DNA from: a virus
Taxonomy: Duplodnaviria > Caudoviricetes
IMG/VR virus record: IMGVR_UViG_3300005611_001698
Span: 96,001-160,000 of that record
DNA length: 64,000 bases
Direction: 5' to 3' (one strand)
Positions 4,632 to 26,120 of this stretch are shown piece after piece. Below the pieces are notes generated by a model, which saw nothing but the letters and a program-made list of their open reading frames with translations, searched no databases and had not been told where the DNA came from. The position numbers were made by a program, and so were the translations under genes. How positions within the stretch are numbered: position 1 is the stretch's first letter; every line of letters starts with the position of its first letter.

Positions 4632-5671
4632 CAGATTACCTCACAAGCCTCCTGATAGATGTTTTTTATAATATCTTTGACCGCATTCTTATCTATATCA
4701 GTTTCAGATTCATCAAGATATCTACTCAGGATTGAAAGAGTATCTTCCGATTGTTGAATATCAAAATCTTCATTTTCAGCAATAGCAAAGTTTTCAACAA
4801 TCTTCAAATCAGCAACACCAGAATCAAGAAGTTTATCTACAAACTTTTCAAACTTCTTTGGATCTGTTTTCTTACGGACAATAAGTTTTACAATTTTATC
4901 TTTATACTCTGCTGTATTAAATGTTTGATATGGAGTATCCTCATAATAGAGACGATAAAACATCCTGAAAGGATTATTGACAGGAGTTGTTTCAAGTGTC
5001 TCTGTATCAAAAATGTGAAACCCTCTGGTTTCTTCTAGATCACTCCAATAAATCTCATATGGATTTCCAAGATAATTGATATTATCCTCTGTACTTCTGT
5101 GATGATAATGTCCAGAGAAAACTTTTTTAAATCTTGCATAAGGAGCTCGATCAGCACCATGATCCATTAAGTGCTGGCGATTAGCATAGAATCCTTGCAG
5201 TTCCAAGTGTCCCATGACAACAGGACATTCGGTTTTTTTAAGTGAATCGTAAGTTGAACTTTCATTCTCCTGATTGATCCAGGGAACCATTGCAATGTTC
5301 AGTCCACCAATTTCACACTCTTCATACTCAGGTATAACATATACATTATCATATTCTCGCAACAAAAGATCAACTGCATTGATACTATTGGTGTTTTTAT
5401 AATAGGCAGTGTGGTTACCAACGATTGTGTAAACCTTAATGCCCATCTTTTGAAGTCTGTCATAATAGTTCTTCTTTGCCCATGAAAGTGCTGAGAAGTT
5501 AATACCAGTGCGATTATCAAAGGTATCACCCATATCTATGACTACGGTGATTTTCTCTTTCTCTAAGGTAGGGAAGAATACCTCATTATAGAACTCCAAA
5601 AAGAAGTCGTGAAACAGTTTAGAATTTTTACGAGCACCGAAGTGCTGATCTGTTATGATTGCGACTTTCAC
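4631..5671 (-). CDS. g47: Recombination endonuclease subunit, SbcD/Mre11-like (gp47)
   Basis: Metallophosphoesterase motifs DQHFG, GDTFD, GNH and GHYH. Confidence 0.97.
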   Translation of the reverse strand: MKVAIITDQHFGARKNSKLFHDFFLEFYNEVFFPTLEKEKITVVIDMGDTFDNRTGINFSALSWAKKNYYDRLQKMGIKVYTIVGNHTAYYKNTNSINAVDLLLREYDNVYVIPEYEECEIGGLNIAMVPWINQENESSTYDSLKKTECPVVMGHLELQGFYANRQHLMDHGADRAPYARFKKVFSGHYHHRSTEDNINYLGNPYEIYWSDLEETRGFHIFDTETLETTPVNNPFRMFYRLYYEDTPYQTFNTAEYKDKIVKLIVRKKTDPKKFEKFVDKLLDSGVADLKIVENFAIAENEDFDIQQSEDTLSILSRYLDESETDIDKNAVKDIIKNIYQEACEVI

Positions 5672-9483: not shown

Positions 9484-10899
9484 TCACATCAAGTTGGTGA
9501 CCTTGACGCGACGATAGTAGCGGTTCTGGTTGGCAAGGAGTCTGCCAAGACCCTGATCAGTGCCCTCAGCAAATGGGTTAGCAACAAGACCGTAACGGGT
9601 CTTAAAGCCAATCTTAGGCTGGAAGTTGTTCTCACCAACGGCACGAACCATTTGGAGAGGAACATATGGACAGTAGAAGATACCAGCGTCATAAGGTGAA
9701 GAACCCTTATAACCTACAACGTAGTACTGGTTAGCAGCAACGTTAGCAGCATATGGGTCAATGTAGACGCGATACTTACCATTGATAGTACCAGCAAAAG
9801 TGTTGCCAGTGTCATCAACGTTCAGGTTAGCGTTCAGGGCAGGGGTGTAATCAAGTACACCAGCCATGGTCAGAGCAGAAGCAACGTCAGCAGAGGTCAT
9901 GATGATGTTGCCCTTTCCTCTACGAGTTCTTTGTGCGATAGCGTTAGCATCGCGCTCGATTTGGAACAGCAGACCTTTGAACTTCTCAACAGACCAACGA
10001 CCGTTGGAGTCAACGTCCAGGTTGAACTCACCAGCGGTAGCGGTGTTGACGGTAGCACCTTGCTCAGCAACCTTATAGATGGTTCTGATGACTTCACGGT
10101 TGATCTCAGCCAGAATCTCAGTGGAGAGGATGTTGGCGAGTTCAGCCTCAGCATTCAGACCATGAATTGCTTTCAGGTCTTGTGCCAGTTCCAGTGAGTA
10201 CTCAGCTTTCAGAGCACGTGACTTAGCAGTAACGGTAACTTTCTCAATCGAGAATGCCATCTCGTTGAAAGCATTGGTGGTAGTACCATCCAGTGCCTCA
10301 GCATCGGCAGTACCCATGCCCTGACCAACGTTATAACCGTCAGTAGCAGCAGTTCCAACAGGGTTGAGAACAGATGGGTTGGTGCCAGTCTGTGAAGTAG
10401 TACCGAAACCAGCAGCTACGTCAGAGAAGTAGCTGGTGTTGTCGAAGCCATGATCCATACCGGAGAATGCGGTATCAGCTTCGTTATAGAATGCCTCAGC
10501 ACCGCTCATTCCAGGAGTACCAGGAGCAGCGTAGCGTGAACGCATTGCGAAGATCAGTCCAGTAGGACCGTTCATTGGTTGAACGCCAGCCAGGTCATAA
10601 GCAACCAGGTTAGGCATTGAGCGTCTGATCAGGGAGATCAGAACAGGGTCGAAACCAGCAACAGGACCAGCAGCAGTGGCATCAGCAGAGAAACCAGCAG
10701 CAGAGGTTGAGGAGTTGGTGTTGACCGTTGGGGTCTCCATCAGGTTCATGCCACTGTTAAAGGCATTTTCCTCACGGAGGAATCTTTCTTGGTTTTCCAG
10801 CAGAACAGCGGTTACAGCTCTACGATGGGAATCTTTGATTCCACCATCATGATCGAGAAGAGGCTTCCACTTTTCTACCAGATGCTCGGATTGGAACAT
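9484..10899 (-). CDS. g23: Major capsid protein (gp23)
   Basis: GVQPMNGPTGLIFAMRSRY, KSRALKAEYSLELAQDLKAIHGL, FYCPYVPL and FQPKIGFKTRYG motifs. Confidence 0.99.
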   Translation of the reverse strand: MFQSEHLVEKWKPLLDHDGGIKDSHRRAVTAVLLENQERFLREENAFNSGMNLMETPTVNTNSSTSAAGFSADATAAGPVAGFDPVLISLIRRSMPNLVAYDLAGVQPMNGPTGLIFAMRSRYAAPGTPGMSGAEAFYNEADTAFSGMDHGFDNTSYFSDVAAGFGTTSQTGTNPSVLNPVGTAATDGYNVGQGMGTADAEALDGTTTNAFNEMAFSIEKVTVTAKSRALKAEYSLELAQDLKAIHGLNAEAELANILSTEILAEINREVIRTIYKVAEQGATVNTATAGEFNLDVDSNGRWSVEKFKGLLFQIERDANAIAQRTRRGKGNIIMTSADVASALTMAGVLDYTPALNANLNVDDTGNTFAGTINGKYRVYIDPYAANVAANQYYVVGYKGSSPYDAGIFYCPYVPLQMVRAVGENNFQPKIGFKTRYGLVANPFAEGTDQGLGRLLANQNRYYRRVKVTNLM

Positions 10900-12062: not shown

Positions 12063-12713
12063 TTAGATATTTTGCAAAAAGTCGTTAAAGAGACTTAATT
12101 TCTTTTCGTCAAGTTGTTTTTGATCAACAAGAGTGTTAATCTGGGCATATGTTTTAGCAGCATACTTTTCACGGAGGATGCCACCATCCCATACCCACTC
12201 TTTTCCTTCCATGATTCCCTCAACAAATGCATCAGGTGCGGAAGGATCAGCAACGATATCAGCAGCAGTTGCTAACATGAAATCATCACCTACAACATTG
12301 ATTCCCTCTCTTGTAAGTTTGAGTGAACCAATTCCTCTGGAAGAGACACCAAGTTTGACACCTTCCTCTACCAGAGAAGCAGCAATCTTACCCATTGGGG
12401 TGTTGAGGATTTTTGCCTTACCGATAAAGTTAGAACCACTCTCTCTGAGTGATACAATCTTATGTGAAACTCTATCAAGGTTTACAGTAGGACCTTCGGG
12501 ATGACCGAGTTCTCCAAGAGCACGTCCTTTTTGAATATGATTTTCGTTGTATCTTCCAACTTCACGGCGAAGTGTTTCCATTGGATACATGCGACCGTTG
12601 CGGTTCTTGATGTTTCCTTGCAGAAAAACACCTTCGATATAAAGTTGTTTCTTACCGCCTTTGTTTTCGATAAGAAATTCAACTGATTCGATTTCTTCTG
12701 TGATGAGTTTCAT
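12063..12713 (-). CDS. g21: Prohead maturation protease (gp21)
   Basis: NRNGRMY, GELGHP, GVSSRG and DIVADPSAPDAF motifs. Confidence 0.98.
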   Translation of the reverse strand: MKLITEEIESVEFLIENKGGKKQLYIEGVFLQGNIKNRNGRMYPMETLRREVGRYNENHIQKGRALGELGHPEGPTVNLDRVSHKIVSLRESGSNFIGKAKILNTPMGKIAASLVEEGVKLGVSSRGIGSLKLTREGINVVGDDFMLATAADIVADPSAPDAFVEGIMEGKEWVWDGGILREKYAAKTYAQINTLVDQKQLDEKKLSLFNDFLQNI

Positions 12714-22206: not shown

Positions 22207-22533
22207 TTAAACCCAATCTAATTTGGCAGGATGATATCTTTTACTGTTTGTAATGTTAATTGATTTAGTTCTTTTTTCTTCGACAGGATAAACGTTCTGA
22301 ACGATTGCGCCTGGGTATTCATCCTGAATATCTTCTGTCAAGTCTTTGTTGGAGGGAAGATCTCCATCAATAGAAAACTCCATTCGATAGAGATTACCTT
22401 CCCATACAACGTCAGCAACAAAGTTCTCGCCAACCGATTGTTGCTCTTGCTGTTCACCACCGATGATAAGTGTTCCGTTAAAGTCTCCTGCGATATTTAC
22501 GCTTTCGGAGAGAAATTGTTTGAAGGATTTCAT
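22207..22533 (-). CDS. Putative internal head protein with capsid-targeting-like N-terminus (108 aa)
   Basis: Start revised to ATG 22533 (TGATG overlap). MKSFKQFLSE resembles the T4 IPIII capsid-targeting sequence MKTYQEFIAE. Confidence 0.65.
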   Translation of the reverse strand: MKSFKQFLSESVNIAGDFNGTLIIGGEQQEQQSVGENFVADVVWEGNLYRMEFSIDGDLPSNKDLTEDIQDEYPGAIVQNVYPVEEKRTKSINITNSKRYHPAKLDWV

Positions 22534-24356
22534 CAGCAGTTCCACGCTCTAAGGGACTTATTGATTCTGCTATCGGGATCGTTAGCAGTCTTGGCAGAAG
22601 TCAGTTTCTTCTTCATGCCTTTCATTCTTGCACAGAATGATGCACGACGAGGATTGCCAACTTTCTTTGAAGGTGCTTTGAGATCCGAACCAGGATTCTC
22701 TCGCTCATAAGACTTACGTCCTTTTTCGTTCAAACCACCTGAGGGATTCTTGCCAGACTTCTTGGTCCAAGCAGCTGCTTCACTCATATCACTTGCAGCT
22801 TCTTCTTGCTCTTTCTCACTAGCATCATCTACACTATATTTTTCCCACATCTTAGGACCATATCCACATTGACTCTTGGTTTCTTTTTTCTTACAGAGTC
22901 TACAATATTTTTTTTCGGAATCAGACTCCTCTTGCATATGCATGTCAGTATTGCCACCTTTTTGAACTGCTTTTTGTTGCAGTTGAAGTTTTTGGCGATT
23001 AAGAACTAATTGCTTTCTTTGGATTGCCTGTTTTTGCTTATCCTCTTGTTCCGTTTGCTCACTTACTCTAATCAATGGTTGAGTTGGATCAACCGTAGAC
23101 TTCATATATTGAGTCACACGGGCATCAGGATAAATCTTTTGAACAGCATCAGTGACTTCTTGCTTAGATGGAATACTTAAACTTGGGAAAAACAGTTGCA
23201 TCATATAAAACTTTCCTCTGAAAGTGAGGAAAACTCTCATCAACTGACCATTTTCACGGGGAACCGTAACAGCCTCAATGACATTTGAACTATCTGCTTG
23301 TCCAGATACATTTTCAACCTCCTCTTTCTCGCAGCGGTTGTAAGTCTTACCAAAGAGTTTCTGTGTGCCTACTTTCTTATAACCTTTCCAGCACTTTTTC
23401 CCTGCCTCGTTAATCTCAATAGCACCAATTGATTCCAGAGCAGCGATCTGTGAGGGCGTGAACCCCTCTTTCTTGGTTTTATTGCCCCAACTATCGGCAC
23501 CGACTTTACGGCACTTTACAAGGGCACCAGAGGCATATGCAGAAGGCCATACTTTATAACGTGATTTGACCTTATGGTAACAAGCGTCTTTTTCCTCTCC
23601 ATAATGAAACTTTCTATCTTTTGTTTTTGTTGGAAGTTTACCACTTCTTACTTTTGTTGAAGAAGTTTCACCATATCCCTCAGGATGTTTACCAACTTTT
23701 GTTTTTCCAATGTTATCTGATTTTGCTTTACTCCCTTTTTCGGTATAATGCAACTTTGCTGGTTTATCTTTATCCTTTGTAATCACGGATTCCTGACCAT
23801 GTTTTCTACCAAGACGACGCATCACTTTTCCAAAACGCCTCTTTGACATTCCTTTTCCAGGACTGGTATGGTATGAAACTTCTCTTCCTGTTTCTCCGCT
23901 ACCATACTTATATTCACCTACACCTTTTTTATATCCAATACCATGTTTTTTTAGATCTTTTTCTAATCCCTTCCTCTTGGCACGATTTGCCTTTTCGTCA
24001 GACCCTCTATCTGCGGAAATGTGTCCAGTAGTTTGAGTCTTGGATTTGCTCATCGCTCTTGCAAGACCACCTTCTTGTACAAATTCTTCTGTCTTCACGT
24101 TGATTGCCTTCCCTGATCTTTCTGGATTTGGATCTTGACGATTCTTTCGACGAAATGCTCTCTCCTCTTCATCCTTAGAAAGATTGCGTTTCATCTTACT
24201 TGAACCACACTTTGGTTTAGTTGTTTGTCCTGGTTGCTTAGCACATGGTTTACCAGCATATTTGCCGCCAAGTTGAACCCAACCAGGTTTGCCATCAGAA
24301 GACTTACTCTTGCCAAACCAATCATGTAAAGAGGAGTCGCCGCTCTTGTTCGCCAT
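22533..24356 (-). CDS. Modular basic late protein, putative protease-processed internal head polyprotein
   Basis: Lys/Arg-rich modules separated by short hydrophobic-X-E linkers; late promoter directly upstream. Confidence 0.7.
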   Translation of the reverse strand: MANKSGDSSLHDWFGKSKSSDGKPGWVQLGGKYAGKPCAKQPGQTTKPKCGSSKMKRNLSKDEEERAFRRKNRQDPNPERSGKAINVKTEEFVQEGGLARAMSKSKTQTTGHISADRGSDEKANRAKRKGLEKDLKKHGIGYKKGVGEYKYGSGETGREVSYHTSPGKGMSKRRFGKVMRRLGRKHGQESVITKDKDKPAKLHYTEKGSKAKSDNIGKTKVGKHPEGYGETSSTKVRSGKLPTKTKDRKFHYGEEKDACYHKVKSRYKVWPSAYASGALVKCRKVGADSWGNKTKKEGFTPSQIAALESIGAIEINEAGKKCWKGYKKVGTQKLFGKTYNRCEKEEVENVSGQADSSNVIEAVTVPRENGQLMRVFLTFRGKFYMMQLFFPSLSIPSKQEVTDAVQKIYPDARVTQYMKSTVDPTQPLIRVSEQTEQEDKQKQAIQRKQLVLNRQKLQLQQKAVQKGGNTDMHMQEESDSEKKYCRLCKKKETKSQCGYGPKMWEKYSVDDASEKEQEEAASDMSEAAAWTKKSGKNPSGGLNEKGRKSYERENPGSDLKAPSKKVGNPRRASFCARMKGMKKKLTSAKTANDPDSRINKSLRAWNC

Positions 24357-24377: not shown

Positions 24378-24385
24378 TATTTATA
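24378..24385 (-). promoter_or_regulatory. Late promoter TATAAATA for the 607-aa gene
   Basis: Exact consensus; contains the TAA stop of the upstream ORF. Confidence 0.85.
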
Positions 24386-26120
24386 CTTCTATGGCAGTAA
24401 AGACAGTTTTGAAAGTGGTTTGAGCACCAGATGCTGGATATCCAATCAATCTCAAAGATCCACCATTAATATCTGTTGAGAAAGTTGCTACTCCTACCGG
24501 TTGATTTATAGTTCCATATTCAGACATGTATGTAGTTGTTCCGTCATGTATCACACTAATAGTGGTTGAATTATAATTTGTACCCTCAGTTACTTGAATC
24601 TGATAGTTAACAGATCTATAAGTAGAAGCACTGATCGACATTACAACTGCTGGCCCAGTTGAATTTGTTGTTAAAACACCAGACTGAATATCACCAGCAA
24701 TGAGTTCTAAATTTGTTGCAGATACTGGCGCAAAAGTAAACTCAGAAGAAGATGCATCATACCTTAAAAATCTACCATCTCCAAGGTTTGAAGAGTTTAC
24801 ATCAGTCAAACTAATCAAAGTGGATGATCCACTTAATGCAGTGCTGGCAATACCAACCCATTTAGAATTTGTCTGATCGTAAATAAGAAGTTTGTTATTG
24901 CCTGTTGCTCCGTCAAATTCAACATCATCAAGATCTTTGATAAATCCTGCTCCGCCGCCACCCATTGTTGACAGTTGAGTCTGAACTCTGTTTATGAAAA
25001 TTCTATAATGCTCTGCCAGATCTTTTAGTGTGGCAAACTTTTGATCCATTGGGGTGAGTGGATCTTGTCCTGTTCCGATGTTTTCTGGTTCATCTGGTGG
25101 TTCCGTTAGGAGATAGTTCTCCTGTAAGTCCTCAATCCTTTCCTGCTTTATTTGAATCTGTTCAACGATCTCTCTTAAACTTTCAAAGTTTTTGAGATCC
25201 TCTTTTATCTTATTGATATCTTCTTCATAATATTTTGGTTTTGGTAAACCATTGAGTTTATTTTTGAGAGAATCTACTTCAACATCAATTTTATTTCCAA
25301 CATACTCAAATTTTTTATTTAAAGATTCTTCAATCCTTTTTACAGTCTCAGCAGTTACATCTGATACATCATCTATCTTATTATTAACTTGATCTGTTAT
25401 AACGATTTCAAACTCTTTTTGATTATCTTTAAGTTTCTTTTGGAGTTTCCAAATAATTTCAGATTGTTCTTTCAGTTGATTGAAAATCTGTTCTTTAAGA
25501 GTTCCAACTCTATCATGGATATTTTTAAAGTCCGTTTTGGATTCAAAAGCAAAAACTTCTTTTTCTTCTTCAATTCTGTTTAACTCATCTTGAATACGGG
25601 AAGAAATAGTTTCTACACAATCTTCAACTATCTTAAATCGCTCATCAACTGTATTGAAAGTTTGCCCAACCCATGTAAAATCAGGAACTTCTGTGACTTT
25701 ATCGATCCAGGATGGAAGTGAAGGAATCGATTGTTTTACTAACTGTATAGATTCTTTGATTATTTCAAGTTCTTCCTCATAATATCTTACCTCTGGAACA
25801 ACTGGAATAGATGCTTTTATATCATCAATAATCTCACAAATTGCTTCAAGTTCTTTGTCATATGTTTTTATTTCAGGTATTTCTGGAATATTTTCGCGGA
25901 CATTATTGATTAGACGTAAAAGTTCTCCCCATTCTGGTGCCTTAACAACATCAGATATTTCAATGCTGGGATTGCCATCAAGATCGTCAATAACTTGAAT
26001 ATCTTCTTCTACACTCTCTTCCTGCAAATATTCTTCAACCGAAGGAAGTAACACGGTTTGCCCAACGATATCTTCAATAGATGGTAATTCGTTACTATGC
26101 TTTTGGGGCATTTTAATCAC
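24381..26120 (-). CDS. Coiled-coil protein with C-terminal virion-type beta domain
   Basis: Acidic coiled coil with repeated PxxxYY(D/E)E motifs, a GGGGAG hinge and LxDLxDV repeats. Confidence 0.75.
   Translation of the reverse strand: MIKMPQKHSNELPSIEDIVGQTVLLPSVEEYLQEESVEEDIQVIDDLDGNPSIEISDVVKAPEWGELLRLINNVRENIPEIPEIKTYDKELEAICEIIDDIKASIPVVPEVRYYEEELEIIKESIQLVKQSIPSLPSWIDKVTEVPDFTWVGQTFNTVDERFKIVEDCVETISSRIQDELNRIEEEKEVFAFESKTDFKNIHDRVGTLKEQIFNQLKEQSEIIWKLQKKLKDNQKEFEIVITDQVNNKIDDVSDVTAETVKRIEESLNKKFEYVGNKIDVEVDSLKNKLNGLPKPKYYEEDINKIKEDLKNFESLREIVEQIQIKQERIEDLQENYLLTEPPDEPENIGTGQDPLTPMDQKFATLKDLAEHYRIFINRVQTQLSTMGGGGAGFIKDLDDVEFDGATGNNKLLIYDQTNSKWVGIASTALSGSSTLISLTDVNSSNLGDGRFLRYDASSSEFTFAPVSATNLELIAGDIQSGVLTTNSTGPAVVMSISASTYRSVNYQIQVTEGTNYNSTTISVIHDGTTTYMSEYGTINQPVGVATFSTDINGGSLRLIGYPASGAQTTFKTVFTAIEV

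Follow-up and report, generated by a model that had tools for sequence, protein, structure and literature searches.

Introduction

In phage T4, the internal proteins (IPI, IPII, IPIII) together with the Alt protein are late, basic head cargo. Each is encoded by a separate small gene and carries one N-terminal leader of ~10 residues that ends in hydrophobic-x-Glu, is followed by Ala, Gly or Ser, and is cut once. The leader of the internal proteins, MKTYQEFIAE, is removed by the prohead protease gp21 (PMC8442874), which cuts after L/I-x-E and was first demonstrated to do so at a Glu-Ala bond (PMC9026906). The T4 internal proteins form a diverse, fast-changing cargo set with anti-restriction roles. 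Here we describe a 607-aa protein (P0001) encoded on the minus strand at 22533..24356 of a 64,000-nt stretch of viral DNA (IMG/VR record IMGVR_UViG_3300005611_001698, positions 96,001 to 160,000; hereafter the window). Like the T4 proteins, this polyprotein is late and basic, belongs to a family with diverse cargo and shares its genome with a gp21 homolog; unlike them, it holds up to eight units in one frame with internal leaders. On balance, we favour the view that it is head-internal cargo that gp21 cuts into small basic peptides and an S-adenosylmethionine (SAM) lyase, all of which reach the host along with the DNA.

Few marine viruses are as abundant as T4-like cyanophages. The window comes from a T4-like cyanomyovirus of the family Kyanoviridae, with S-SSM5, S-RIM2 and metaG-MbCM1 as the nearest records. 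Leaders in the polyprotein family are near-identical to that of T4 (TYKEFIAE versus TYQEFIAE), and no sequence similarity was found between the polyprotein cargo bodies and T4 proteins. Unlike the T4 internal proteins, the window polyprotein has no N-terminal leader, and the P3 residue of its Glu sites is often V or M. In the giant phages phiKZ, 201phi2-1 and SPN3US, a gp21-like protease processes many of the head cargo proteins after Glu, at short motifs and with redundant sites (PMC9026906), much as we propose here. The giant-phage motif is S/A-x-E and the proteins are large, have removed propeptides and show no sequence relation to the polyprotein, which is instead a chain of small shuffled units.

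Two further systems bear on the enzyme in this chain. The SAM lyases T3 gp0.3 (T3 SAMase) and Svi3-3 (PF23780; PDB 7OCK, 8BB1, 6ZM9, 6ZNB) share with module 2 of the polyprotein an alpha-beta sandwich and the G-x-Y, Glu and Q-E-S motifs. According to PMC8406200, no phage protein is made earlier in infection than T3 SAMase, whereas module 2 is expressed late and is presumably delivered ready-made. In contrast to both enzymes, module 2 forms part of a polyprotein, follows a capsid-targeting-like leader and has a basic, disordered C-terminal tail of ~50 aa (aa 204-253). The other system comprises ORF6 of cyanophage S-CREM2 and the virion cytidylyltransferase of T4-like cyanophages, both detected in virions by mass spectrometry. 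ORF6 has a homologous SAM-lyase domain; its gene stands by itself elsewhere in the genome, encodes 414 aa and has its own N-terminal leader, while the polyprotein copy is embedded. The S-CREM2 authors proposed that ORF6 enters with the DNA to act against restriction; no targeting sequence, gp21 sites or polyprotein is described there.

Results

A family of shuffled modules

The polyprotein is a member of cyanophage cluster T4-GC119 (phrog_727, E 1.1e-141), as seen from its homology to annotated members and its position between gp16 and gp17. S-SSM5_108 and the S-P4 'structural protein, T4 GC0119' were matched by tblastn and lie in the same gene order. The family is very large: two word-index searches gave at least 8,000 candidates each, and a search of 50%-identity representatives from metagenomes returned 5,663 clusters. 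The T4-GC119 gene ranges in length from 276 to 2985 nt across 16 phages. A plus-strand reading of 22533-24356 was rejected because it contains stop codons throughout.

We divided the protein into eight modules (M1 to M8), all on the minus strand. Module 1 (aa 1-92, 24081..24356) is the conserved N-terminal core module with two Cys and starts MANKSGD. It is followed by an internal capsid-targeting-like leader with a predicted gp21 site (aa 87-95, VKTEEFVQE/G, 24072..24098; a slash marks the predicted cut) and by module 2 (aa 96-253, 23598..24071), the SAM lyase domain, which carries G147-x-Y149, E159 and Q188-E189-S190 and ends in HYG, the protein C-terminus in stand-alone forms. Module 3 (aa 255-300, 23457..23594) is a helical core module with a Cys pair and weak DUF5872 similarity, and module 4 (aa 318-350, 23307..23405), preceded by INE317/A, is a beta-hairpin with a Cys pair. 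Module 5 (aa 362-432, 23061..23273) is a well-folded alpha/beta domain preceded by VIE361/A, the best-conserved site; a protein atlas search with it gave unnamed viral clusters only, at scores of 0.80 or less. Module 6 (aa 434-480, 22917..23057), preceded by VSE433/Q, is a long Gln-rich helix, and module 7 (aa 482-512, 22821..22913) is a small three-Cys module that is N-terminal in other homologs. The last, module 8 (aa 527-607, 22536..22778), preceded by MSE526/A, is DUF6321, with a PF19846 match at aa 535-605 of 82 bits against a cut-off of 28.5.

These modules were then located in 387 homologs, with borders that started from the sites of an earlier, preliminary description of this DNA; as the homologs are related to one another, the conservation counts below are not independent. 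The commonest architectures were M1-M3-M4-M5-M8 (87 homologs), M1-M3-M8 (68), M1-M3-M4-M8 (53), M1-M4-M3-M8 (22), M1-M3-M4-M5-M6-M8 (18), M7-M1-M3-M4-M5-M8 (13) and M2 alone (12), in support of the earlier proposal of module gain and loss from phage to phage. The breakpoints of BLAST alignments fall in clusters at residues 92-95, 253/255, ~443 and 524-530 of the query, and the S-SSM5 gene is split in two exactly at 253/255. Homolog borders coincide with the proposed Glu linkers at 95, 253/254, ~433-443 and 524-526. The module borders proposed earlier also lie close to those of the homology blocks and of the predicted folds. In an AlphaFold model of the whole polyprotein, built with 70 homologs, folded units alternate with ten intervening segments with a predicted local distance difference test (pLDDT) score <50, which make up 27.5% of the chain. 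All seven proposed Glu sites are inside such segments, and so is the leader at aa 87-95.

In many T4-GC119 homologs (P0049, P0062, P0085 and others), a DUF192 domain (PF02643) occupies the slot between M1 and M3 that holds the SAM lyase in this phage. The DUF192-bearing homologs have I-E-E/G just ahead of M3, and the M1-M3 slot looks like an exchangeable cargo position. Clustering of the unassigned inter-module segments for further cargo gave no resolution, since low-complexity Lys-rich sequence merged 324 of the 375 segments into one cluster.

The polyprotein has 131 Lys and Arg versus 72 Asp and Glu (isoelectric point, pI, 9.9). Seven of the eight proposed fragments are basic as predicted (pI 9.0-10.6), whereas fragment 477-526 is acidic (pI 4.9). 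Of the modules, earlier described as often Cys-containing, 1, 3, 4 and 8 have Cys pairs, module 7 has three Cys, and modules 2, 5 and 6 have none.

Glu leaders conserved at the junctions

Conservation at the junctions is concentrated on the residues around the predicted cuts, even though the preceding linker is not conserved. Before M5 (99 unique junctions), P3 is V, I, M or L in 90, P1 is Glu in 93 and P1' is Ala in 83. The 207 junctions before M8 have Glu at P1 in 157, G, S or A at P1' in 158 and V, L or I at P3 in 121. Where an N-terminal extension exists before M1, it ends in [VIL]-x-E followed by (G/A/E/K)NKSGD or in a full capsid-targeting-like leader. The Glu motif travels with the downstream module, independent of the upstream neighbour. 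Across the family, the density of [VILM]-x-E-[AGS] per 100 aa is 3.84 in the zone of 14 residues around the start of a module, 0.05 in module cores and 0.57 elsewhere, a ~77-fold excess ahead of modules over their interior. The sites are unequal: roughly half of the homologs conserve E317 and E433, and E254, with Tyr at P3, and E476 are weak.

The Glu motif as a mere part of the DUF6321 domain was rejected, because stand-alone podovirus forms of the domain have no such motif. These proteins of 83-84 aa are encoded by the T7-like cyanopodovirus P-SCSP1k (4959-5213) and the pelagiphage HTVC033P (4983-5234), and they start MAQKKN... and MAKTPAW..., respectively. Since neither has a Glu leader, the leader is not part of the DUF6321 fold. 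Podoviruses are not known to have a gp21-type protease. The P-SCSP1k gene directly follows the major capsid gene, and the HTVC033P gene adjoins an amidase. DUF6321 is widespread in marine phages; our literature search found no mention of it, and the P-SCSP1u cryo-EM paper has nothing on a small DUF6321 protein.

Module 2 is related to phage SAM lyases

The whole-protein Pfam scan reported DUF6321 alone and hid the match of module 2. When aa 90-256 were scanned alone, they matched positions 3-109 of the 133-position PF23780 profile with E 1e-7 and 32.4 bits, above the cut-off of 28, and 13 module 2 homologs scored 28.1-33.1 bits. The model of module 2 is a beta-alpha-beta-beta-alpha-beta sandwich whose core has a pLDDT of 70-89, with values as high as 94 when the whole protein is modelled; this is the GlnB-like alpha-beta sandwich fold of T3 SAMase and Svi3-3. 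The six best PDB matches in Foldseek were all phage SAM lyases (Svi3-3 and T3 SAMase). VIA-align gave Z 11.1 for T3 SAMase (7ock_A, 8bb1_E), with a root mean square deviation of 3.1-3.2 over 113-119 residues, and Z 9.2 for Svi3-3 (6znb), while generic ferredoxin folds reached at most 9.2 over shorter alignments. The whole-polyprotein model had the same top structural match, T3 SAMase, as module 2 alone.

The invariant residues G147-x-Y149, E159 and Q188-E189-S190 occur in the same order and on the same strands as the key residues of Svi3-3, a match at the level of motifs and not a superposition of residues. In Svi3-3, these are G56, Y58, E69 and Q104-E105-S106 (PMC7877911). Other sequence comparisons did not recover the relation: hhalign of the module 2 alignment against T3 SAMase found nothing, and phmmer with module 2 and the profile of its alignment against PDB sequences gave chance matches only. 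We base the relation on the Pfam match and the fold, by which module 2 is a member of the SAM lyase family; the activity of this family, cleavage of SAM to MTA and homoserine lactone by a trimer, is predicted for module 2.

Capsid-targeting-like leaders in the family and in the genome

A look-alike of the T4 capsid-targeting sequence precedes module 2 in 23 of 23 copies, in very different proteins. Examples are TITYKEFIAE/G, QKTYREFIAE/G, LSFKTFIAE/G and the N-terminal MKTFSQFMAE/G; the window copy reads KTEEFVQE95/G. Some homologs also start with such a leader (MKKFEQFVKE/ENKSG or MKKFAEFLYE/NKSG), and others have N-terminal mini-leaders, such as MLSE/GNKSG, MALNE/NKSG and MEIISE/KNKSG. Some long M2-bearing proteins have module 2 at the C-terminus behind the same kind of leader.

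The gene immediately downstream of the polyprotein (22207..22533, minus strand; phrog_1742 / T4-GC392) encodes 108 aa from its ATG, and its N-terminus, MKSFKQFLSE/S, is similar to the T4 capsid-targeting sequence. Of 120 homologs of this gene, nearly all begin MKSFKQF[IL]SE/S. The ATG overlaps the polyprotein stop codon (TGATG), and the gene is translationally coupled to the polyprotein; the GTG start that the ORF finder placed four codons upstream is probably wrong. The body behind the leader is paralogous to module 5, with an hhalign probability of 97.3% (E 2.7e-11). This paralogy needed a profile-profile comparison, as BLASTP of the downstream gene against the polyprotein was weak (E 0.003).

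In the whole 194-kb genome, the leader pattern starts only two ORFs, the downstream gene and a cytidylyltransferase. The latter is a cytidylyltransferase-like protein of 403 aa (genome 78637-79848, minus strand) that starts MKTFSAFIQE/A. It adjoins a second candidate polyprotein of 531 aa (genome 77034-78629, minus strand), ~17 kb before the window, which contains a DUF3008 domain and the repeated acidic linkers EEVENVDE, EEVENVKE and EEVEQIDE. By eye, the homolog P0330 starts MDHLASKKALDELNNLYEAS, close to the MDIHASRKAVQELNALYAEM start of the 531-aa protein, and other long M2-bearing proteins contain DUF3008-like KKQQRFFG sequences. Judged in this way, some long M2-bearing proteins look like relatives of the 531-aa protein. 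If this relationship is true, the SAM-lyase cassette moves between two carrier families.

Relatives of the polyprotein in virions

That the protein is packaged in virions, as the preliminary description proposed, agrees with published proteomics of its relatives. Suppl. Table 8 of PMC3037559 classes T4-GC119 as 'Structural protein' and gives 13 peptide counts for it in virions of S-SM1, and the cluster is absent from S-PM2 (PMC3037559). The cytidylyltransferase family was found in both S-SM1 and S-CREM2 virions. S-CREM2 ORF6, a SAM hydrolase detected in virions, is homologous to module 2 (37.6% identity, E 1e-4) and starts MKDFDSFLEE. The capsid-targeting-like tag goes with virion presence in cyanophages, and we consider it very likely that the polyprotein itself is present in virions.

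These detections also bear on a different explanation, in which the polyprotein is a late protein that acts in the producing cell. It would be a basic DNA-binding or DNA-condensing factor with a SAM lyase that lowers SAM late, for example to keep progeny DNA unmethylated, and it would have been detected in virions only because some of it was carried over incidentally with the DNA. The late promoter, the strongly basic composition and the lack of T4-GC119 among the proteins detected in Syn9 virions are consistent with this. However, it gives no role to the capsid-targeting-like leaders and the conserved Glu junctions, and family members or a related SAM hydrolase appear in two independent virion proteomes. 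We regard it as very improbable.

Genomic context and presumed processing enzyme

The polyprotein gene is in the gp16-gp17 region, which is already recognised as variable (PMC3037559). On the minus strand, the order is gp13, gp14, gp15, gp16, a 579-aa tail-fibre-like gene, the polyprotein, the 108-aa gene, the gene of a 451-aa virion protein, a pair of small genes and then gp17. Coordinates and lengths suggest that gp18, gp19 and gp20 follow further downstream on the same strand, and beyond these putative genes Pfam confirmed gp21, gp22 and gp23. A T4-type late promoter box, TATAAATA (24378..24385, minus strand), is 21 nt before the polyprotein ATG and overlaps the TAA stop codon of the upstream gene, in line with the late promoter noted earlier close upstream. 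Likewise, the prohead protease gp21, the presumed processing enzyme, is encoded in the same late module and on the same strand (12063..12713, minus strand; Peptidase_S77, 119.7 bits), as had been described. The gp22 scaffold of the same phage matches T4_CASP with 283.7 bits.

The gp23 protein (9484-10899, minus strand) contains NLME55/TPTV, the likely propeptide cut, with LLE35, LRE43 and LVE9 also in its N-terminal region; its Pfam Gp23 match begins at residue 80. The gene upstream of the polyprotein (24381-26120, minus strand; 579 aa) has an acidic coiled-coil N-terminal half and a tail-fibre-like C-terminal part (phrog_28263). At its position, S-SSM5 and S-P4 have a much shorter gene of ~178 aa. 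In S-SSM5 it bears the label T4-GC403, whose cluster gave 60 peptide counts in virions of S-SM1, and in S-P4 it is annotated as a YadA-domain structural protein, GC0402.

Weighing head cargo against an uncleaved virion protein

Several observations weigh against cleaved head cargo. In the polyprotein alone, [LIVMFY]-x-E occurs 12 times versus 8.8 +/- 2.5 in shuffled sequences (P = 0.14), and the strict T4 motif [LI]-x-E occurs twice versus 3.1 expected. The seven Glu sites listed in the preliminary description are all present exactly as written, but they are not above chance within this single sequence; the pattern reaches significance only across the family, in the conserved junctions and the motif density, together with the position of all seven sites in low-confidence AlphaFold segments. 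Only one of the seven sites (INE317) has the canonical L or I at P3, and the other six have V, M or Y. The window polyprotein has no N-terminal capsid-targeting sequence of ~10 aa and starts MANKSGD, like most homologs. This caveat had been raised at the outset and stands, although T4-like leaders elsewhere in the family and at aa 87-95 answer it in part; the internal targeting sequences are putative. T4-GC119 is encoded in the Syn9 genome yet went undetected in Syn9 virions (PMC3037559), and GC392, the downstream gene, and GC110, the stand-alone M2, were not flagged as structural in the 2010 tables. Published virion proteomes report neither a head or tail location nor cleavage. To these points we add the relatedness of the homologs and the shared origin of sites and module borders in our counts, the motif-level character of the Svi3-3 match and the negative hhalign comparison with T3 SAMase.

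Some of these points would fit a virion protein of several folded domains that stays uncleaved, for example an accessory of the neck, tail or surface with flexible acidic linkers. Hydrophobic-x-Glu-Ala/Gly would then be a structural cap at the domain start or a recombination scar at the linker DNA and not a protease site. The gene is located among neck, tail and terminase genes and adjoins the tail-fibre-like gene, proteomics say merely 'virion', the single-sequence motif count is at chance with mostly non-canonical P3 residues, and the N-terminal targeting sequence is missing. The stand-alone DUF6321 proteins, however, show that the leader is not part of the fold, and the M2 leaders are near-copies of the T4 capsid-targeting sequence, whose role in head targeting and cleavage is known. 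Short N-terminal leaders such as MLSE/GNKSG are sensible only if they are removed, and it is hard to see what a virion would gain from bearing on its exterior an enzyme whose substrate is a cytoplasmic metabolite. We consider this reading improbable.

Predicted processing and delivery

The central idea of the preliminary description, a virion-packaged cassette protein with gp21-type sites between shuffling modules, is supported by the matching homolog borders, the conserved junctions, the T4-like leaders in the family, the S-SM1 virion detection and the SAM-lyase module. Under this head-cargo reading, the polyprotein would be made late and enter the prohead core, probably via capsid-targeting-like leaders such as aa 87-95. 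There, gp21 would cut after Glu in the hydrophobic-x-Glu/Ala, Gly or Ser leaders before each module. The products would be the SAM lyase (aa 96 to ~253) and a number of small, basic peptides, of which most have Cys pairs. The pieces would remain with the packed DNA and then enter the cell alongside it. The SAM lyase could remove SAM before any phage gene expression and so disable SAM-dependent restriction or BREX-type defence, while the basic peptides may neutralise DNA charge or have other early targets; a role as DNA-condensing peptides is suggested from their charge only. Injection with an early anti-restriction role has, in our judgement, an even chance.

The predicted cuts differ in strength. 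The cuts after E95, E361 and E526 have the best support and are probable, those after E317 and E433 are likely, and those after E254 and E476 are doubtful. A restricted form of the same head-cargo reading is partial processing, in which gp21 cuts only where the leader is fully capsid-targeting-like or conserved best (E95, E361 and E526) and the other sites are chance occurrences. Four pieces would result: M1, the SAM lyase with M3-M4, M5-M6-M7, and DUF6321. Strong conservation is confined to these three junctions and the M1 start, with E254 and E476 weak and E317 and E433 kept in about half of the homologs, as partial processing would predict. On the other side, all seven sites are located in disordered linkers, the DUF192-bearing homologs have I-E-E/G just before M3, and redundant sites are known for giant-phage proteases (PMC9026906). 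Partial processing is possible, in our view, but on the unlikely side.

Discussion

Earlier work has already described the targeting and cleavage system of T4, SAM lyases of phages and, for one cyanophage, a SAM hydrolase in the virion. In the literature searched, we found no description of a cyanophage internal protein or of a T4-type capsid-targeting leader in cyanophages, and no account of such leaders as internal junctions of a shuffled polyprotein or of a SAM lyase as such a cassette. We suggest, tentatively and at slightly less than even confidence, that an internal-protein system of T4-like cyanophages has so far escaped recognition, its cargo being encoded as cassettes, each a targeting and cleavage leader with a body, that recombine freely into polyproteins. 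One gene could then deliver changeable, pre-made effectors at DNA entry (SAM lyase, DUF192, DUF6321 and small Cys peptides), and the same leader would also mark the virion cytidylyltransferase and the second polyprotein.

If the cassette reading is true, sequence by itself would suffice to list the proteins that marine phages inject, with the leader and its Glu cut serving as a rule that predicts which proteins T4-like cyanophages inject. It would also explain the high variability of the gp16-gp17 region. Delivery of a SAM lyase without early gene expression would be relevant to SAM-dependent restriction, BREX and possibly SAM-AMP signalling. The polyprotein would then be a natural multi-cargo version of the T4 packaging tag, a tag already used in engineering.

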